Source: a virus
DNA length: 38,567 nt
IMG/VR virus record: IMGVR_UViG_3300045988_118516
Span: 1-38,567 of that record
Reading direction: 5' to 3' (one strand)
Position 1 is the first letter of the stretch; every line of letters starts with the position of its first letter. Of this stretch, positions 100 to 28,998 are shown piece after piece. The notes beneath the pieces are model-generated. The model saw nothing but the letters and a program-made list of their open reading frames with translations, was not told the DNA's origin and did not search any database. Made by a program: the position numbers and the translations under genes.

Positions 100-206
100 G
101 ATATCCAATCCTTAAAATTTGTGAAAATAGGATATTTTTTACCGCAAACCTCTACACTGTCCGGCAGAGCGTCCGTTAAGATGTTATACCATATCTCCTG
201 GGGCAT
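1..206 (-). CDS. Tail assembly chaperone, Gp15-like: N-terminal segment of a gene that wraps the circular junction (continues 38567->38114; 186 aa in total)
   Basis: The minus-strand frame is open from ATG at 206: MPQEIWYNILTDALPDSVEVCGKKYPIFTNFKDWISFF, running straight into LLHEDKSLTDVEK of the 38114..38560 ORF. Stops (TAA, TAG) lie just upstream of 206. Confidence 0.75.
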   Translation of the reverse strand, partial: MPQEIWYNILTDALPDSVEVCGKKYPIFTNFKDWISFFLLHEDKSLTDVEKVHISMNWYIERPDNMIA

Positions 207-531
207 ATCGCTGCACCGCCTCAACTAGTCTTAATTTTGCAGCAACTCGCTGCTCAAACATCGCTTTGAGCAACTGCATAAATGTTTTTTCGTACTCTCG
301 GCGATTGTCGGGAGCATCTGCAAAAACGGCGTCTGCTGTACCGTCACCAAACAGCACATCAAAAAACACCCGAAACGATTTGCAATACTGCCGGATGCCA
401 TCCGCATCGTCTTTGATTGGTTGGTTAGGGATAGCAGCAGCAGCGGTGGCATACCGCTGCATAAACGCTGCATCCTCTGCATCAACGTGTAAAGCAACCC
501 CGTTTATAGCTACTGTATACATGTCTTGCAT
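184..531 (-). CDS. Tail assembly chaperone (gpG-like position), 115 aa
   Basis: ATG at 531 with AAGGAG 9 nt upstream. The gene sits between the major tail protein and the Gp15-like/tape-measure genes. The call is positional. Confidence 0.6.
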   Translation of the reverse strand: MQDMYTVAINGVALHVDAEDAAFMQRYATAAAAIPNQPIKDDADGIRQYCKSFRVFFDVLFGDGTADAVFADAPDNRREYEKTFMQLLKAMFEQRVAAKLRLVEAVQRYAPGDMV

Positions 532-4765: not shown

Positions 4766-6006
4766 TTTGCACTCTTTTTGCTCTCTTTTTGCACTCTTTT
4801 CGCCGCATGCACCGCTTTTTGTGCCTCGCTCCGGCTAAATCTCAGCACTTGCTCTCTAAACCGGTCACGGTCTTGTCCGGTCTGATTGCAAAATGCTTGC
4901 AAATCCTTTTCGGCTGCTTTCAACTTTGCAGCGGTTGCCTGATAATCTGCTGTTGCAGCCTCTCTCAACTCTGGCTTGTCTGTCAGTTCAGCAGCTTGCT
5001 GCATGCTCATGGTCTGCCGTTTCAGTTTCCGGACGTTCCGCTCTCTGGCTCGCTGCATCTGGCTGATTTCGTATTCTGTGTATTTCTCGCCGTTCCATTC
5101 AATCCGCTTTTCGTCCAGCTGTTCCAATTCTTTTTTGGTGTAGTTCGGCGTGGACAGCCCTGGAAAATACGGAAACCAGTCGTGACGGCAGTTCCAACCC
5201 CGGAAGCCGTCACCGTCACCATAGCCAATGCCACGCAACGACCAGACTTTCAAACCGTCTATCGTCTTGCCAACGTCTTTTCCGGTCAGGCTGACAAGCT
5301 GCCCCTGCCACTTTGCATGCTCCGGTCTTGCTCCAGAATGTGCGGTGATTTCCATGAGATAACAGTCGTTTTCCTCGGCGTTGGTCTTGCTGACCTCTGC
5401 CGCCGTCTGTCCAACTCCGGTCAACGCTGCACGGCGGATTGCAACGTCCAGTTTGTCAACGTGTCCGGATGGATATGTGACTGACAAGCCGCCCTGTGCC
5501 GCCTGTTTCAGCACGTTCCGGATTGCCTCTTGATAGCTAAACGCCCCACTTGTAATTTGCATATATGCATCATTGCAGGCCTGATAAAATGCACGCTGCG
5601 TTGTCAGTGCCGTGGTCTTTGTGAGGTTGTCCATCACACCCATGGTCTTTTTAAAACCAGCCTCCAGCACCTGCCGCAGGCTGTCCGATTGCCGGATGTC
5701 AACCGTTGCAATTCCGGCTTGTCTGTAAGCCTGATTGTCAATCTCTACGGCTGTCACGCCTGCATCCTCAAATAACGCCAGAACCTGTGCTGTGCATGCG
5801 TCTGTGCGTTGTGCAATCAGCTGCAAGATGTCCTCGTACAGCAAACCAGCCTCTTGTAACATCTCTGCTTGGTGTTTGGTTGCCTCGGACACAAACCCCA
5901 TCCGCAGGATACGTTTCACCATCGCTGACAAAATCGCATCTTCCAGGTGGGCATACGCTGCGAGCACAGCGTCCGTGCACGACTCGTAGTAAATCGGCGG
6001 CAGCAT
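4753..6006 (-). CDS. Minor capsid / head morphogenesis protein (phage minor capsid protein 2, SPP1 gp7-like), 417 aa
   Basis: Directly follows the portal gene (TGATG overlap). Contains motifs VDKLDVAIRRAALTGVGQTAAEV and AHSGARPEHAKWQGQ, which are typical of this family. Confidence 0.75.
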   Translation of the reverse strand: MLPPIYYESCTDAVLAAYAHLEDAILSAMVKRILRMGFVSEATKHQAEMLQEAGLLYEDILQLIAQRTDACTAQVLALFEDAGVTAVEIDNQAYRQAGIATVDIRQSDSLRQVLEAGFKKTMGVMDNLTKTTALTTQRAFYQACNDAYMQITSGAFSYQEAIRNVLKQAAQGGLSVTYPSGHVDKLDVAIRRAALTGVGQTAAEVSKTNAEENDCYLMEITAHSGARPEHAKWQGQLVSLTGKDVGKTIDGLKVWSLRGIGYGDGDGFRGWNCRHDWFPYFPGLSTPNYTKKELEQLDEKRIEWNGEKYTEYEISQMQRARERNVRKLKRQTMSMQQAAELTDKPELREAATADYQATAAKLKAAEKDLQAFCNQTGQDRDRFREQVLRFSRSEAQKAVHAAKRVQKESKKSAKASR

Positions 6007-10849: not shown

Positions 10850-12004
10850 TCAGTATTTTATAAAACCATTGCCATAAATACTGTTAAGCACATCAAATAC
10901 ATGTCCCATACCCAGCCCTTTGTTGTTGGGTGTCCACAAACCATCCTCGTTATACTCGCCGCCGTTTATGCAGTAATTGTACTGTTTTGGATGTGTCTCT
11001 TTAAGTTGCTCAAATCTGCTTTTGTCTTTGTCCAAATGACAACCAAATCCACAAAAAATGCAGCCTGTCCTATCGCATCCAGTTGTTTTTAGCTTGTCCG
11101 CTCCACAGCCGCAAAACCGCATTTGTTCTGGTTCTTTGTTGTAATTAACATCGCCATAAATACTTGCAATAGCGATGTTATATTTTTTTATGTATTGCAA
11201 TACATCTTGTTCCGTCCAAAAACTCATAGGATTTGAAACCGGTCTTTTGCTTTTAAAAGCATTGCAACCATTAGCAAGCCATGCTCGGTATCTTAGCTTT
11301 CCTTCGCTTGCCATTTGTGCCATAAACGGCTTTTTCCCAGTTTGCCTTTCATATTCCTTTGCCGGCTTTTTCTTCATGATTTTGCAACATTTATCCGAGA
11401 TACTAAAATCAACGGATAACAATGGCTTGTATTTTTGGACGTCATACTTATTAGTTTTACCATTTTTACTAACATACACCCCGTCAAATTGCTGGTGTGC
11501 ATATGATTTTGGATTGTTTCGGGCGTCGTAGACTTTTTGCGATATCTCTTTGCTTATCACAGGATAGCCGTAAGTTTTGATAACCTCATCAAATCGCATC
11601 GCAGGTTTTAATATCGTGACATTATCAAATGTCTTTACAAACCCCTGTATCTCCGGATACTCCAACCCAGTATTTACAAACACCGCCTCTACATCCGGAT
11701 ACATTTGACGAACCAGATGCAATAAAACCGTGCTGTCTTTGCCACCGCTAAACGACACATAAACCTGCCCGTCATCCACATACTCGCTGTACTCGTTCTT
11801 TTTCAGAGGCGGCTCTTTGTCGCCTCTTGTGTCAAACACCACAAAGCGTGTTTTGCCTGTCTTGGTGTTTGTGATTTTAAACTTGCACCAGCTCTCATAC
11901 CAAACCTTGATACGCTGCTTTGTCATTATGATTTTTGCATCCAACGGCAAAGACTGCATTTGCACCAAATCTGATATCTGGTGCCGTTTAACATCATCGT
12001 TCAT
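10850..12004 (-). CDS. PAPS-reductase-family PP-loop ATPase with a C-terminal Cys cluster, 384 aa
   Basis: PP-loop motif VSFSGGKDSTVLLHL and C-terminal CGCGADKLKTTGCDRTGCIFCGFGCH. The ATG at 12004 overlaps the VRR-NUC stop as ATGA. Confidence 0.75.
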   Translation of the reverse strand: MNDDVKRHQISDLVQMQSLPLDAKIIMTKQRIKVWYESWCKFKITNTKTGKTRFVVFDTRGDKEPPLKKNEYSEYVDDGQVYVSFSGGKDSTVLLHLVRQMYPDVEAVFVNTGLEYPEIQGFVKTFDNVTILKPAMRFDEVIKTYGYPVISKEISQKVYDARNNPKSYAHQQFDGVYVSKNGKTNKYDVQKYKPLLSVDFSISDKCCKIMKKKPAKEYERQTGKKPFMAQMASEGKLRYRAWLANGCNAFKSKRPVSNPMSFWTEQDVLQYIKKYNIAIASIYGDVNYNKEPEQMRFCGCGADKLKTTGCDRTGCIFCGFGCHLDKDKSRFEQLKETHPKQYNYCINGGEYNEDGLWTPNNKGLGMGHVFDVLNSIYGNGFIKY

Positions 12005-12327
12005 TTTGATTCCTCCATTTCGTTTATTAATCGCACTGCATCCTCCGCACTCCTGCAAATCCCAGCGATTGCACCGCTTTTTTGCATCATCTCTATAAAA
12101 TGCAGCTGTGCTTTGGATGCTCTGCCTTTTGGCGTTTTTACCTCAATAAAGACTGCCTTGCCATCTGATTTTCGGACGCCAAACAAGTCGGAAAACCCTG
12201 CCGGAACGCCCGACGTAATCCATCGCCCGTCCAACGTGCGGCCACTGCACACGTTGACGCGAAAAATCACGCAATACTCTGACACGGCAGCCCGAATCTG
12301 ATTTTGAATGTTATGCTCCTGCGTCAT
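12001..12327 (-). CDS. VRR-NUC domain nuclease, 108 aa
   Basis: GFSDLFGV...AVFIEVKTPKGRASKAQLHFIE matches the D...E-x-K core of VRR-NUC. The RBS is GGGAGGA. Confidence 0.75.
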   Translation of the reverse strand: MTQEHNIQNQIRAAVSEYCVIFRVNVCSGRTLDGRWITSGVPAGFSDLFGVRKSDGKAVFIEVKTPKGRASKAQLHFIEMMQKSGAIAGICRSAEDAVRLINEMEESK

Positions 12328-24811: not shown

Positions 24812-26053
24812 TCACAATTTTGCATCTAGTGAAGCGACGTGCTTCAGAATCTGTTGCAGCGTGGATTCTTCGGTGTCCGGTTCAGGTGTTGGCTCTGGTT
24901 CTGGTTCATTCGGTTGCGTTACTTTTGTGAACCCGTTCAATCCAGCAGTTTTTATGATTGTCGGGTAATCGGTGTAACAGTAATCCATATCACACTCGCC
25001 AACAATACCAGGGATACTTTTTTGCCCAATAATGTCATACTCTGCGTTACCAGCTACGTTATACTGCCAAATGCCGTATGAATTTTGATACGTGCATTTA
25101 CTTGCGTACTGGGCACACCAGACCGTATAACGGCTTTTAATGCTATCTGACAGGTAATTGTCTAAGTAGTAGGTACTGCAATACAGACCGGCAAAATATC
25201 CAGCCTGTTCCAGCGTGTTCAAAAATGCATCTACTATTGCAGAGCAAGAAGCTTTGCCTAATGCAAATTGTTTTTCGTTCTCCAAATCCATATAAACCGG
25301 ATACTCAAACGATTTACCTTTAATGGTCTGCAAAAACACCTGTGCCTCACGTCTTGCCTCGTCTGCCGACATTGCGTAACTAAACCAGTACGCACCGCAG
25401 GGGATACTCAGACGCTTACAAGCGGCATAGTTACGGTTAAATTGTGTATCAACTTGGTTTGCCTCTTTGCCGTATCCAGCCCGTAAAATCGCAAAATCAA
25501 CCAGCCCGGACGCTTTTGCAGTGTCCCAGTCAATCTTGTTTTGACAGTATGACACATCGATGCCTTTTAAAATACTTGTTGTTTCGGTTGTCTTTTTGAT
25601 GCCAAAATACTTGTAAAAATCCTCTGTAACTGTGCCGTTCCCTTTGACCTCGTCACCGAGCCAACGGTATCCTGTGCGGACATCCAGATGCGTGTACTGG
25701 TAAGATGTCGTGATGTTAGCAATACCACCGAAACCTAAGTCTTGAGCCTTACAGCATACCGTTTTGCTGCTGATGGGCTGCCCGTCCTGCCCATAACAGC
25801 AGACATCCGCAGCAGTGCCTTTGGTATGCTGACCGCTGCTTGTGCCTCCAACCGTCTTGTCATGCTCTGGGCAGCGGTATCCACTTGTCACAATGATTTT
25901 GCTACAGTTAAGAGCAGTATAAAGCTGCTCTAACTTGTCTATTAGACCGCTGTCTATCAAAATATCGTGCAATTTACCGCACTGGCACTTAAACTCCTGC
26001 ACGTTAAAATGTGCTGACAGCTGGGTTTTGTCGTCAAATTGATACGTTGACAT
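24812..26053 (-). CDS. Bifunctional endolysin: N-terminal zinc peptidase (M15-type) plus GH25 muramidase, 413 aa
   Basis: SGYRCPEHDK...GQHTKGTAADV...YTHLDVR (H/D/H metal-site pattern) and GIDVSYCQNKIDWDTAKASGLVDFAILRAGYG (GH25). AAAGGAGTG lies upstream of the ATG at 26053. Confidence 0.85.
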   Translation of the reverse strand: MSTYQFDDKTQLSAHFNVQEFKCQCGKLHDILIDSGLIDKLEQLYTALNCSKIIVTSGYRCPEHDKTVGGTSSGQHTKGTAADVCCYGQDGQPISSKTVCCKAQDLGFGGIANITTSYQYTHLDVRTGYRWLGDEVKGNGTVTEDFYKYFGIKKTTETTSILKGIDVSYCQNKIDWDTAKASGLVDFAILRAGYGKEANQVDTQFNRNYAACKRLSIPCGAYWFSYAMSADEARREAQVFLQTIKGKSFEYPVYMDLENEKQFALGKASCSAIVDAFLNTLEQAGYFAGLYCSTYYLDNYLSDSIKSRYTVWCAQYASKCTYQNSYGIWQYNVAGNAEYDIIGQKSIPGIVGECDMDYCYTDYPTIIKTAGLNGFTKVTQPNEPEPEPTPEPDTEESTLQQILKHVASLDAKL

Positions 26054-26165
26054 GGTTAACACACTCCTTTTTATTCGATATTGGTTAAGATACACAAAAC
26101 AAATATATTATTTTTGTGCATCTATACAAATTCAAGAAAATATACGCCAAATTGGCATAAACCTA

Positions 26166-26194
26166 TTGACAAATATGCCAAATAGGTGTATACT
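26166..26194 (+). promoter_or_regulatory. Promoter TTGACA-17-TATACT
   Basis: TTGACAaatatgccaaataggtgTATACT. It is flanked by the inverted repeat CCTATT/AATAGG. Confidence 0.65.
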
Positions 26195-26248
26195 ATAATT
26201 ACAGCAAGGGCGAGAGCCCAAAAGAAAAGAAAACGGAGGAAATTTAAA

Positions 26249-27274
26249 ATGAACAACACGGAAAGAATCAACGAACTGCATGCAAAAATCAGACAGGAAC
26301 TCACCAACAAAGAAGCTTTGATTGATAGCAGAGAATACTTGGAATTTAAGGATGCTGACACAACAGAGGTTGAGGCAGAGCTTGCGGAAACAAGAGCCAA
26401 CATTAAGGCAATGCGGGAAGAACTCAGAGCCTTGCTGGACGCCGAATCTGCAGAAGAAAAAGAAAAAGAGTTGCAGGCAAAAATTAAACAGAAATTTGAG
26501 GCTAAGCAACCGCTACTCAGAGAGCAAGCACGCCTTTGTCTCAACAGCAAGGACACTGCAGAGGTCGACGGCAAAATTGCAGAAATAGAATCAAGCGTCA
26601 ACGAGATGCATTCTGAATTAAACGCTCTCCGGTGTGCAGAATTTGCAATCGAATGTGCAGAAAAATCAGAAGCCGATGATGAAGAAGAAAAAGATTTAGG
26701 CAAGAGAATCAAAAATCTGCAATTGCGGTTAAGAATTGCATACAGCCAGCGAGACCGCTATGTCTTTCACGGCTCAACATCAAAAGCAAAACAAGCTGAA
26801 ATTGAGGCTGACCTCACAAAAGGGGAAGAAGAAATTGCCATGATTAAAGCAAAGTTAAAATCCCTTGGTGCAGAGCCGGAAGAATGGAATGCACTTGACA
26901 TTTTTGATATTCCATCGTCGGATTTCGGAGCCGTTGCAGAAGAAGAGGTTAAAATTTACATTGACTTTGATGTATTTGCACAGCAGTACAACGCCGCAAA
27001 AAGTTGTGATAATAGCGACAAATTTATTATAAGACCGTGGGAAGACTGGATGAATCCTGCTGCAACACGTGCGTCAGTTGTTGATTTGCTGTCATATATA
27101 TACAACGTAAGCAAAAACGGATTTAACGAGATTGCTAAGCAGTACAAGTCCCTTAGAGAGCTGTCTGACAAGTTTAATATACCGTACAGCACCGTCCAAA
27201 AGTGGGGGGCGGGAAAAGCAACACCGCCGGAATACCTGTTGACGATGATGGCATATGTTACAATTATCGGGTAA
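26249..27274 (+). CDS. Coiled-coil protein with a C-terminal HTH, 341 aa
   Basis: ACGGAGGA RBS. A long charged heptad-like N-terminal part is followed by the C-terminus LRELSDKFNIPYSTVQKWGAGKATPPEYLLTMMAY (XRE-like HTH pattern). Confidence 0.75.
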   Translation: MNNTERINELHAKIRQELTNKEALIDSREYLEFKDADTTEVEAELAETRANIKAMREELRALLDAESAEEKEKELQAKIKQKFEAKQPLLREQARLCLNSKDTAEVDGKIAEIESSVNEMHSELNALRCAEFAIECAEKSEADDEEEKDLGKRIKNLQLRLRIAYSQRDRYVFHGSTSKAKQAEIEADLTKGEEEIAMIKAKLKSLGAEPEEWNALDIFDIPSSDFGAVAEEEVKIYIDFDVFAQQYNAAKSCDNSDKFIIRPWEDWMNPAATRASVVDLLSYIYNVSKNGFNEIAKQYKSLRELSDKFNIPYSTVQKWGAGKATPPEYLLTMMAYVTIIG

Positions 27275-27277
27275 CAG

Positions 27278-27289
27278 ATTTGTACAAAT
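27278..27289. promoter_or_regulatory. Perfect 12-bp palindrome ATTTGTACAAAT, 22 bp upstream of the next -35 element
   Basis: Read directly from the sequence. It shares TGTACAAAT with 22134-22142. Confidence 0.5.
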
Positions 27290-27311
27290 ACACAAAAACC
27301 GCCGAAAAGTA

Positions 27312-27339
27312 TTGACAAAGTGCATATAAGCGGTATAAT
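27312..27339 (+). promoter_or_regulatory. Promoter TTGACA-16-TATAAT
   Basis: TTGACAaagtgcatataagcggTATAAT. Confidence 0.65.
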
Positions 27340-27345
27340 AAAGGC

Positions 27346-27492
27346 ATAGCAAGACAACTTGCTTATGTCCTCCTTGCAAAAGGAGTGTTGGATTTAAATC
27401 ATTATTTTTAGTATGTGCTATAGGTAAGTAGCCGTTATGTCGCTACAAGCAAATGGCGTGTCGCTCCCCGTTGCAGGGGAGCGTGTCTTTTT
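27346..27492 (+). ncRNA. Candidate ~150-nt structured RNA or attenuator leader ending at an intrinsic terminator
   Basis: It lies between a consensus promoter and a strong terminator. Hairpins are cauagcaag/cuugcuuaug and cuccuu-GCAA-aaggag, then the terminator. There is no convincing ORF. Confidence 0.45.
27462..27492 (+). terminator. Intrinsic terminator inside the leader, upstream of the 74-aa ORF
   Basis: cgctcccc-gttgca-ggggagcg followed by tgtcttttt. Confidence 0.75.
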
Positions 27493-27518
27493 AAACCAAC
27501 AATACAGGAGGGCTAAAC

Positions 27519-27743
27519 ATGAGTAAAAAACCAACAAGAGTATTTTGGATTGTAAGGTATCGGCTATGGGGTGCGGACGGAGAATCATATATGTGGTTTG
27601 ACCACAAAGAAGACGCAGAAAAGTTTGCAGCCCGTGACTTTTACGACAAGCCATACCATAAAGTATATCCAAAAGAAGAGGGCGATTTACAAGCTATTCG
27701 GCTTAATGCTCTTGGTCTTTTAAATAACCCGTGGGGAGATTAA
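27519..27743 (+). CDS. Hypothetical protein, 74 aa
   Basis: CAGGAGGG RBS 7 nt upstream. The gene is followed by a terminator. The family is not recognised. Confidence 0.6.
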   Translation: MSKKPTRVFWIVRYRLWGADGESYMWFDHKEDAEKFAARDFYDKPYHKVYPKEEGDLQAIRLNALGLLNNPWGD

Positions 27744-27768
27744 AAACTAATACTTAAATTGGACGGTT

Positions 27769-27804
27769 CGCCCAGCAGTAATTTAAACTGCTGGGCGTTT
27801 TTTT
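27769..27804 (+). terminator. Intrinsic terminator ending the plus-strand island
   Basis: cgcccagcag-N9-ctgctgggcg followed by ttttttt. It overlaps the stop codon of the convergent methyltransferase gene. Confidence 0.8.
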
Positions 27805-28585
27805 ATTTTGATAATTCTTTTATAATTTCTTTTTCTCGGTCGCTGAGTTCAAAACGTTCCGCCCGTTCACGTTCCACCTGTTCTCGCTCTGCCCGTTCAC
27901 GTTCTGCGGCACACTGCTCGGAAATTAAAAATCCACCGCCAAATATCATCTTTTTCTTTTCTTTTTGGGTATCAAGCTGCGAGACAAAGAAAGATTCTGA
28001 TTTTGGCACTTTAAACTCAATCCCATATTTTGAGTAAGCGTTAATCCGTGCGGATTGTACAACATAATTTGGGTATGTGTATTTTGGCAACTGTTTTTTA
28101 GTCTCTTTCAGTATCGTTTCGGTCGCTTTTCTTACAACCTGATACAATCCCGGAGCGGTTCTGATTCGCAGATTCTGCGGCTCTAAATTGGTCAAAAATG
28201 ACGTTTTTACATTAGCACCGTTGTCATAAATGATGTTTGCATCCACAACCAACGCTGTACAATCTCTGTCTCTTATGCAATTAAACAAGGTTAAATTTGG
28301 AGCAAATAAGAAAAACGGAACATTTTTTGAAATGTAAAAATCTACAATTTTTGACAATATGCTAAATGGTGGATTGTCTACAACTATCGCAGTTTTGTCG
28401 TAGTCATAGTTTTCATAATCGCCGCCCGGATAAAAAGGGCGAACGAAATTGTCCCGATTAACCCCGTATTCACTTGCAACCCACTCTGCAACAGCATCGT
28501 AAACGACAGGCGGCGTATAGCAATCGTCTGTTGTTTTTTTCGGCTTAAATTTTTCTACAAATTCTTCGTATGTTTTGCTTTTCAT
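27803..28585 (-). CDS. Putative N6-adenine DNA methyltransferase (DNPPF motif), 260 aa
   Basis: DDCYTPP near the N-terminus and the catalytic-type motif VVDNPPFS. The start overlaps the holin stop as ATGA. Confidence 0.6.
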   Translation of the reverse strand: MKSKTYEEFVEKFKPKKTTDDCYTPPVVYDAVAEWVASEYGVNRDNFVRPFYPGGDYENYDYDKTAIVVDNPPFSILSKIVDFYISKNVPFFLFAPNLTLFNCIRDRDCTALVVDANIIYDNGANVKTSFLTNLEPQNLRIRTAPGLYQVVRKATETILKETKKQLPKYTYPNYVVQSARINAYSKYGIEFKVPKSESFFVSQLDTQKEKKKMIFGGGFLISEQCAAERERAEREQVERERAERFELSDREKEIIKELSK

Positions 28586-28998
28586 TTCTTTTCCTCTTTT
28601 TTTTGCAGCAAATCAATTGCTTTTCGGAGTGGTTCGGGGAACTGCACACCCATCAATCCCACGTTTTCGACCATTGAAATCAATTCATTTGCCATGAATG
28701 CGATACAAACACCATCTCTTACATAGGACGTATGCAGGACAGCGTCCACCTGCACGGCAACCACAACAAGTGCAAGCGTTGCAACCTTACGGCACAAACC
28801 TTTCCAGCCGACTTTAGATTGCAAGCCGCCTGATTCTGTTTTCGGGGACTTCTTAAAAATCCCTGCACAAGCTAACCCCATCAGGTAATCAATCGCCATA
28901 AAAATCAGCAAGGCTCTGATTGCTGCATCCCAGCCGCCAAACAACCCGGCAATCAGACCGCCGACTGTTCCGGCTGCTGCACAAATCCATTCTTTCAT
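28582..28998 (-). CDS. Holin (Phage_holin_4_1 / TcdE-like), 138 aa
   Basis: Multiple transmembrane segments: AAAGTVGGLIAGLFGGW, ALLIFMAIDYLMGLACAGIF and VATLALVVVAVQV. Confidence 0.8.
   Translation of the reverse strand: MKEWICAAAGTVGGLIAGLFGGWDAAIRALLIFMAIDYLMGLACAGIFKKSPKTESGGLQSKVGWKGLCRKVATLALVVVAVQVDAVLHTSYVRDGVCIAFMANELISMVENVGLMGVQFPEPLRKAIDLLQKKEEKK

Follow-up and report, generated by a model that had tools for sequence, protein, structure and literature searches.

The window analysed here is the whole 38,567-nt stretch of IMG/VR virus record IMGVR_UViG_3300045988_118516, and its genes mark it as a temperate, siphovirus-like phage that has a Rep3 initiator of the plasmid type. Our subject is a short plus-strand locus within it, at 27312-27743, in which a strong promoter is followed by an RNA of about 150 nt, an intrinsic terminator and an open reading frame (ORF) of 74 amino acids. 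An earlier note, made from the letters alone, had listed the promoter, the hairpins, the terminators, the ribosome-binding site (RBS) and the ORF, and all of these were recovered at, or within 2 nt of, the places it gave. The interpretation of the locus has changed. The note had proposed an RNA-controlled two-part module; the RNA now looks like a mimic of the repeats found in clustered regularly interspaced short palindromic repeat (CRISPR) arrays, and the ORF like an optional companion.

The RNA gene and the downstream reading frame

The promoter (27312-27339, plus strand) is of the consensus sigma-70 type, TTGACA-16-TATAAT, with a score of 12/12. It is the top promoter-like site between 25500 and 29500, and transcription is predicted to start at about 27344-27346. 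The promoter is nearly unchanged in every relative that bears the RNA, those without the ORF included. Behind it lie, in order, a 5'-terminal hairpin (H1), a first repeat-like unit (psiR1), a spacer-like segment of 60 nt (psiS) and a second repeat-like unit (psiR2). H1 occupies 27346-27366 (plus strand), outside the repeat-like units, and pairs AGCAAG (27348-53) with CTTGCT (27358-63) across a loop of ACAA, GCAA or GCGA; an extension with one bulge is possible. Its stem is invariant in 8/8 haplotypes and its loop is variable. H1 is probably a 5' stabiliser or leader element.

The region of about 150 nt behind the promoter contains no credible ORF. Two small candidates were rejected: a 29-aa ORF (27437-27526), whose frame is broken by a +1 indel in the related locus L002, and a mini-ORF starting at TTG after AAGGAG, for which the Shine-Dalgarno (SD) spacing is only 2 nt and the length is not conserved (7 codons in the window, about 41 in L001). 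The minimum free energy of the whole RNA is -47.7 kcal/mol (z = -3.45), and 0/200 shuffled sequences were as good. The description of this stretch as non-coding, structured, conserved and promoter-driven stands, as does the remark that the RNA is not tandemly repeated, since Tandem Repeats Finder returned no tandem repeats in 27300-27520. No Rfam family was matched at its gathering score, and only chance-level matches appeared at E <= 10. As a control, a genuine type I-C array of 12 repeats was submitted to the same search and it too was missed, so that the silence of Rfam is uninformative with respect to CRISPR likeness.

The RNA ends in terminator T1, a hairpin with the sequence CGCTCCCC-GTTGCA-GGGGAGCG at 27462-27483 followed by TGTCTTTTT, which scores as terminator-like. 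The RBS (AGGAGGG, 27506-27512, plus strand) is conserved in all ORF-bearing relatives, and the 74-aa ORF (27519-27743, plus strand) begins 35 nt behind the terminator hairpin. It has its own terminator, T2 (27769-27804, plus strand), an 11-bp stem at 27769-27797 followed by T7, with which the gene island ends. This succession of strong terminator, RBS, ORF and second terminator is as the earlier note had described it, with the addition that T1 is at the same time psiR2. No promoter was found between T1 and the ORF, and the ORF is therefore transcribed only by read-through of T1. Three natural T1 tails were observed, UGUCUUUUU, UGAAUCUUU and UGUUUUUUU. The U-tract is U7 in loci that have no ORF, and U5 (UGUCUUUUU) or U3 (UGAAUCUUU) where the ORF follows, in few independent lineages.

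Related loci were fetched through the 74-aa protein and through the protein encoded upstream, which has a helix-turn-helix (HTH) domain, and they show four configurations. In the window and most relatives (A) the HTH gene is followed by promoter-RNA-T1, the 74-aa ORF and T2. Four loci (B; L034, L035, L036 and L038) have the HTH gene and promoter-RNA-T1 and then directly a terminator, with no 74-aa ORF. The remaining two configurations are that of L037 (C), with other cargo and no RNA, and that of L009 (D), from which the HTH gene has been deleted and in which the RNA and ORF are 100% identical. Distant homologues of the 74-aa protein are encoded in tightly packed operons of small phage early genes, without a leader. 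Since the RNA occurs in nature without the ORF and the ORF without the RNA, neither part needs the other, and the RNA is a stand-alone phage gene. The two-part module has accordingly been given up, and the fallback idea of the earlier note, an independent small RNA (sRNA), is borne out by the four B loci, which keep promoter, RNA and terminator. The arrangement of these loci marks the 74-aa ORF as optional downstream cargo behind what appears to be a leaky terminator.

The same loci bear on a further explanation, in which the RNA serves mainly to control the 74-aa gene in cis, as a leader or attenuator of a riboswitch-like or protein-gated kind, or forms one half of a type III toxin-antitoxin (TA)-like pair. 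Both had been raised in the earlier note from the order of the parts. A promoterless ORF 35 nt behind a terminator hairpin would suit such a leader, as would the correlation of U-tract strength with the presence of the ORF, and by inspection the arms of the psiR1 hairpin and those of the terminator could in principle swap partners. However, four loci keep the RNA, with the stronger U7 terminator, where there is no ORF to control; the distant homologues of the ORF stand in leaderless operons; the middle of the RNA tolerates a deletion of 24 nt; and no Rfam family was found. As for a TA-like pair, the RNA is not tandemly repeated, the protein does not resemble ToxN and has no Pfam, PHROG or significant fold match, and the two parts are not obligately linked. 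Overall we consider this explanation quite unlikely, and a leader or attenuator as the primary function of the RNA is largely refuted by the ORF-less variants.

The 74-aa ORF itself is coding: between clades, 12-14 codon differences are synonymous and 5 non-synonymous, which indicates purifying selection. Exhaustive HMMER and profile searches placed its product in a family of proteins of 60-90 aa, at least 58 clusters in number, none of which has a name or a Pfam domain; the consensus is KTFWSV.Y..WGAD.....WFDNKEEA..FA..DY.D.PVRH. An AlphaFold2 (AF2) model of the protein (predicted local distance difference test score 79) has a beta-beta-alpha-beta-alpha fold. The structure check suggested by the earlier note was unproductive: the model had no significant structural neighbour by Foldseek in PDB or BFVD, and nothing significant was obtained for the protein from Pfam, PHROGs or the PDB sequence profile. 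In some members of the family the domain has other company: in P0007 an XRE HTH is fused to it on the N-terminal side, in P0009 it is duplicated in tandem, and in P0016 it follows a long extension at the N-terminus. One member of the family alignment, which we infer to be P0007 through its HTH, matches phrog_25567 at 3e-7, and this is the PHROG of the C-terminus of the upstream island protein. The fusion of the HTH to the 74-aa domain thus indicates that the two island genes are functionally linked. A distant member adjoins an AcrIC5-like gene, with Lar and DarA_C genes in the same locus. From such contextual hints the family may be concerned with anti-defence, and its members may possibly be anti-CRISPR proteins (Acrs).

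Repeat-like units of type I-C

Representative genomes were scanned with the T1 stem alone, using the pattern GTCGCTCCCC-N(3-7)-GGGGAGCG, and at least 120 loci were obtained. Approximately 55 of them are CRISPR arrays with a period of 66-68 nt. The array repeat is 33 nt long and reads GTCGCTCCCC-NNNN-GGGGAGCG-TGGATTGAAAT (also GTCGCTCCCC...GGGGAGCGTGGATTGAAAT), with the consensus GTCGCTCCCCGCACGGGGAGCGTGGATTGAAAT. Many of the arrays are in Oscillospiraceae, Ruminococcus and other Clostridia, and they occur in Ruminococcaceae also. Two lie directly downstream of a type I-C operon, cas5d-csd1(cas8c)-cas7-cas4-cas1-cas2, and the same repeat is assigned to I-C in a table of the paper that describes Racrs, viral repeat mimics discussed further below (PMC10651486). 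The phage element itself was not among the rows consulted of the supplementary table of that paper.

In type I-C systems Cas5c cuts at the 3' base of the repeat stem-loop, recognising mainly the cut site and the nucleotides downstream of it, and the mature CRISPR RNA (crRNA) carries the repeat tail as its 11-nt 5' handle, then the spacer, then a 3' stem-loop of 21 nt (PMC8524198). Counterparts of these parts are found in the phage RNA. The unit psiR2 (27460-27496, plus strand), which coincides with T1, reads GTCGCTCCCC-GTTGCA-GGGGAGCG-TG and continues in a U-rich degenerate tail, TCTTTTTAAAC; its stem arms and the TG are identical to the repeat of the approximately 55 arrays. The more degenerate psiR1 (27367-27399, plus strand) reads GTC-CTCCTT-GCAA-AAGGAG-TG-TTGGATTTAAAT. 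Its stem, hairpin 2 of the RNA, pairs 27370-75 with 27380-85 across the loop GCAA, and its 3' tail, TGGATTTAAAT at 27389-99, corresponds to the 11-nt handle, agreeing with the repeat tail TGGATTGAAAT at 10/11 positions in the window and at 11/11 in L034. In L034, TTGGATTGAAAT comes after hairpin 2, and the T1 stem has the arms GTCGCTCCCC/GGGGAGCG with TG behind them.

In global alignment to the host repeat consensus psiR1 matches at 25/33 positions and psiR2 at 28/33 in the window and 30/33 in L003, and 0/5000 shuffled sequences matched the consensus score of either unit. A covariance model was built from genuine repeats only. It ranked psiR2 first in every phage locus, with 19.6-24.3 bits, and in L003 the alignment was full-length, tail included. 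It also gave a full-length match to psiR1 at exactly 27367-27399 (11.8 bits), 60 nt upstream of psiR2 and on the same strand. Because the 3' tail of the repeat was absent from the search pattern, the match of the psiR1 tail is independent evidence.

The two units are conserved in different ways. The psiR1 stem occurs as CUCCUU/AAGGAG, CACCCUU/AAGGGUG and CGCCUUU/AAGGGCG, all of 6-7 bp with no broken pair, and the loop is GNRA in every version. The double changes, C-G/A-U/G-C and U-A/C-G, keep the pairing. Of the checks on the hairpins that the earlier note had called for, covariation thus turned out positive for the psiR1 stem, and the Rfam search empty. The note had seen in this hairpin an SD-like sequence paired with an anti-SD-like one. 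The arms change while the pairing persists, so that only the pairing, and not the SD/anti-SD sequence, is the conserved feature, and sequestration of the RBS is rejected. The 8-bp stem of psiR2, on the other hand, is invariant, and its loop varies freely, even to inversion. The loop is GTTGCA in the window (27470-27475), TGCAAC, the exact reverse complement, in L010 (9952-9957) and CGCAAC in L024, always with an unchanged stem. The exchange looks like a hairpin-mediated loop inversion, and from these variants the loop sequence is unconstrained.

Taken with the array matches, the two units argue strongly that the RNA is a type I-C repeat-derived element, a conclusion of which we are fairly sure. 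It is no canonical CRISPR array, as the units differ strongly from one another, there is one spacer-like segment of 60 nt, and the phage is cas-less. A generic phage sRNA would be another way to account for the locus, for example one that acts in trans or as an antisense to the convergent late lysis transcript, the repeat likeness being a relic of captured host array DNA that has nothing to do with Cas in function. The island does run antisense to the late lysis genes (holin-to-endolysin direction), and a consensus promoter, a 5' hairpin and a 3' terminator would suit a stable and abundant sRNA. The tail of psiR2 is moreover like the degenerate terminal repeat of a Ruminococcus array, which could point to capture of a trailer end. 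Selection has, however, kept just those features that matter to Cas5c and Cascade, namely the handle, a psiR1 stem that covaries and a psiR2 stem that does not change at all, while the rest drifts, and a relic would not retain the compensatory changes in psiR1. We regard a generic sRNA as improbable.

The array in question is that of Ruminococcus sp. RUG14240 (L052:20-150, plus strand), in which the last spacer starts with CATTTTTGTTAT... and the degenerate terminal repeat ends in ...GGAATCTAAAT. These look like the beginning of psiS and like the tail of psiR2 in L002 and L003 (...TGAATCTTTAAAT), a likeness that is weak and concerns low-complexity sequence. The trailer end of a type I-C array in a host may thus be where the phage acquired the element.

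A repeat homology of at least 20 nt with host arrays could also make the locus a recombination or integration substrate, the repeat-like units recombining with, or inserting into, host CRISPR arrays, and such a role has been proposed for viral solitary repeats (PMC10651486). Yet the phage replicates with Rep3 or, in other members of the lineage (L009, L010), integrates elsewhere by a tyrosine integrase, those loci are not beside arrays, and a strong dedicated promoter together with a terminator implies an RNA product. This explanation is hardly credible.

On an unrelated phage contig of 42.9 kb (L159), the gene at 5001-5192 belongs to the 74-aa family and has a product of 63 aa. At 160-275 (plus strand), 4.8 kb from that gene, the contig carries a promoter (TTGACA-17-TATATT), a textbook solitary type I-C repeat (GTCGCCCTTTAACCGGGGCGTGGATTGAAAC), an AT-rich stretch and a terminator hairpin; the repeat scores 25.8 bits with the covariance model (E ~5e-4). 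This neighbourhood is a further hint that the family may be concerned with anti-defence. A further match lies at 4964-5002 (plus strand) over the RBS and start of the family member, GTCGC-N20-GGAGCGTGGAT-GAAATG, with 14.2 bits and E ~0.5, which is not significant alone. It may be a decayed type I-C repeat, and if it is real, the association of repeat and ORF would predate the present phage lineage.

The spacer-like segment and possible functions

Between the two units lies psiS (27400-27459, plus strand), an AT-rich segment of 60 nt. It is the most variable part of the RNA, with both substitutions and indels, and is also of low complexity. In L003 and L006 it is only 36 nt long (L003:4161-4196) as the result of a 24-nt deletion between direct repeats (GCTATAAGCAA in L001). 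The difference of 24 nt equals four times the 6-nt Cas7 step, which may be a coincidence.

The reading we favour, with a probability of roughly 0.6, is that this phage-borne, type I-C repeat-like mini-array acts as an RNA anti-CRISPR and that the 74-aa gene is optional cargo; for the RNA by itself, an anti-CRISPR function has somewhat better than even odds. On such a model psiR1 would supply the covarying stem-loop, of any sequence, and the crRNA 5' handle, and psiR2 the exact host stem-loop, equivalent to the crRNA 3' handle. The tail of psiR2, superfluous in an array of a single unit, would have decayed to a U-run, by which psiR2 would double as an intrinsic terminator. In a Ruminococcus or Oscillospiraceae host with a type I-C system, Cas5c and the Cascade subunits would bind, and probably process, the abundant RNA. 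The RNA could then serve as a decoy that soaks up Cas proteins, in the manner of Racrs, or as a guide resembling a crRNA, by which Cascade is redirected to a host promoter that matches in part, in the manner of the Cracr or crlRNA elements. The 74-aa protein would possibly be a co-operating anti-CRISPR, made by read-through of psiR2/T1. It is also conceivable, as a long shot, that the locus is a Cas-sensing attenuator, in which I-C proteins that bind or cut nascent psiR2 alter termination or the fate of the transcript and so tie the production of a new-family Acr to the presence of the immunity; the upstream HTH protein might be a transcriptional partner in such a device.

Several observations weigh against an RNA anti-CRISPR. 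With regard to the repeats, psiR1 alone is not significant in the model search (E ~2), and there is some circularity in matching the psiR2 stem to the array profile, since this very stem had served to find the arrays. Diversity is low, with about 8 haplotypes and only 3 distinct psiR1 stems. The psiR1 handle is offset by U (L034, L038) or UGU (window) between the stem and GGAUU, and Cas5c may therefore not cleave psiR1 normally. With regard to psiS, its 60 nt are far above the 33-36 nt of type I-C spacers, and it drifts by about 30%, with indels and with a seed that differs among variants, which argues against a fixed guide function. Neither the rest of the phage nor its relatives contain a target of psiS. 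All matches in the GenBank phage collection had E >= 2 and came from phages of unrelated hosts, and exact scans of IMG/VR returned the phage's own relatives only, or nothing. In 817 kb of type I-C loci, matches of a TTC protospacer-adjacent motif plus the psiS seed were not above those of shuffled sequences; these loci are from representative genomes and not from the true host, and in most of them the stretch upstream of cas3 is missing. The 949 spacers from arrays of representative genomes gave only chance 14-16-mers against the phage, and a protein scan of isolate genomes for the host found no relative.

The same 817 kb contained no host CreR/CreA mini-array that resembles the RNA. Type I-C arrays with the exact psiR2 stem are present in genomes of Ruminococcus, Ruminococcaceae and Oscillospiraceae.

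The non-canonical length of psiS, its drift and its variable seed fit a decoy, or else a regulatory guide specific to the strain, better than they fit an inter-viral guide. The latter would be a functional single-spacer mini-CRISPR array that uses host Cascade and Cas3 against competing phages or plasmids, in superinfection exclusion or inter-viral conflict. The layout speaks for it, being exactly one crRNA unit (handle, spacer and 3' stem-loop) in the transcribed orientation, and viral mini-arrays with such a role are documented (PMC6858448, PMC7099407); in L003, furthermore, the spacer is of the canonical size, 36 nt. Against it, psiS is 60 nt in all but one lineage, the GenBank and IMG/VR searches described above revealed no protospacer, and psiS, AT-rich and of low complexity, changes by drift and indels and not by replacement of the spacer. 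We judge a working mini-array unlikely, and prefer an RNA anti-CRISPR.

If the locus is indeed an RNA anti-CRISPR, Ruminococcus/Oscillospiraceae, a clade with phage-host biology that is hard to study, would gain an RNA-based inhibitor of type I-C. The natural design would be a compact one, with a terminal repeat that is also a tunable terminator. The 74-aa family, with its at least 58 clusters of "hypothetical" proteins, and the HTH domain of phrog_25567 would become candidate Acr/Aca-type genes. There is a lesson for annotation as well: what had been described as a strong terminator and an SD/anti-SD hairpin turned out to be CRISPR repeat mimics invisible to Rfam.

Gene neighbourhood and comparison with known systems

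The RNA and the 74-aa ORF belong to a plus-strand island (26100-27810 of the window) that is inserted between the minus-strand holin (28582-28998) and endolysin (24812-26095) genes. The island starts with the HTH gene (26186-27274, plus strand), which has its own promoter at 26166 and encodes a coiled-coil protein of 362 aa with a C-terminal XRE-like HTH (phrog_25567, PHROG match 1.5e-24). A perfect 10-bp palindrome, TTTGTACAAA at 27279-27288, lies right after the stop of this gene and about 25 nt 5' of the -35 box of the RNA promoter. An equivalent inverted repeat (TTTGTG...CACAAA) is found in all variants, including the RNA-less L037, and it could be an operator for the HTH protein. Between the island and the holin there is a minus-strand gene for a 260-aa protein of phrog_21498, function unknown (27803-28585), which some relatives have and others do not. 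The C-terminus of its product is an E/R-rich repeat, and the equivalent gene of L010 has four tandem 15-nt copies (TGAACGGGCAGAACG). In the ORF-less variants the final terminator of the island has a U-run on the minus strand too, and may be bidirectional, which is not so in the window.

Other genes of the window encode minor capsid, portal, terminase and tape measure proteins, a bifunctional endolysin, an antirepressor and a CI-like repressor. A Rep3-type plasmid initiator (23480-24547, minus strand) adjoins the endolysin gene, and the phage is therefore probably a phage-plasmid. In the relative L009 a tyrosine integrase and two serine recombinases take the place of the Rep3 initiator, and L010 is embedded in a host scaffold of 291 kb, from which it follows that the lineage switches between episomal and integrated lifestyles. 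The replication region also contains a minus-strand gene (10850-12058) for a 402-aa protein with a PAPS-reductase domain (PF01507, 1.9e-19); that it acts in DNA or nucleotide modification is a guess. One source labels the host as Ruminococcus sp. The relatives are contigs of about 38 kb, the identical 74-aa protein is indexed in 287 blocks of an assembly collection, and metagenomes appear to contain this lineage of phages or phage-plasmids commonly. The window has no DNA similarity to the GenBank phage collection or to PLSDB plasmids, no tRNA or tmRNA was found in it, and no Cas families were detected in the window or in the gene lists of its relatives.

Compared to type III TA loci (ToxIN, CptIN, TenpIN), the phage locus has in common only the order of promoter, RNA, terminator and protein gene. 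It differs in having no tandem RNA repeats and no ToxN-like endoribonuclease, and in that the RNA and protein are separable. ToxN-type toxins, at about 170 aa, are also much larger than the 74-aa protein. A closer resemblance is to the virus-borne mini-CRISPR arrays that take part in inter-viral conflicts (Medvedeva et al. 2019, PMC6858448; Iranzo et al. 2020, PMC7099407), which share the repeat-spacer-repeat plan on a cas-less virus that relies on the Cas machinery of its host. Unlike these, the phage element has degenerate repeats and a spacer that drifts and is not replaced, and the search of other viruses yielded no protospacer.

The Cracr elements, or viral crlRNAs, have the form psiR-psiS-terminator, with a psiS that partly matches the promoter of a host cas gene or of creT; candidates have been reported for type I-C and for Bacillota, and they often accompany Acr proteins (Liu et al., 10.1101/2024.10.29.618823). 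Mini-arrays of the CreR/CreA kind on the host side were described by Shmakov et al. 2023 (PMC10120712). The phage RNA agrees with the Cracrs in its succession of psiR, psiS and psiR or terminator, in its degenerate repeats and in its native promoter. It departs from them in that the defining feature, at least 9 PAM-proximal matches of psiS to the host cas or creT promoter or to CreR/CreA, was not found in the loci searched, and in that its psiS, at 60 nt, is much longer than usual, with a seed that differs between variants.

Racrs are solitary repeat mimics that stand right after a promoter, in cas-less surroundings; Cas proteins are bound by them, and acr genes are often clustered nearby (Camara-Wilpert et al., Nature 2023, PMC10651486). 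One of them, RacrIC1, is co-transcribed with an AcrIC5 homologue (PMC10651486). The phage element is likewise an intergenic repeat mimic just behind its own promoter with no cas genes nearby, is predicted to give rise to a small RNA, is of a CRISPR subtype that occurs in the probable host clade, and is situated beside small accessory genes with which it could be co-transcribed. A Racr, however, has one solitary unit, whereas the phage element has two at CRISPR-like spacing, each of them half canonical, as psiR1 keeps the handle and psiR2 the stem. There is an extra 5' hairpin, and the RNA is upstream and not downstream of the protein gene. Overall, the phage RNA most likely belongs to the known Racr/Cracr class of viral repeat-like RNAs, of type I-C. 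Within that class it would be unusual for its half-canonical repeats, its psiS of 60 nt and a repeat that doubles as a terminator.

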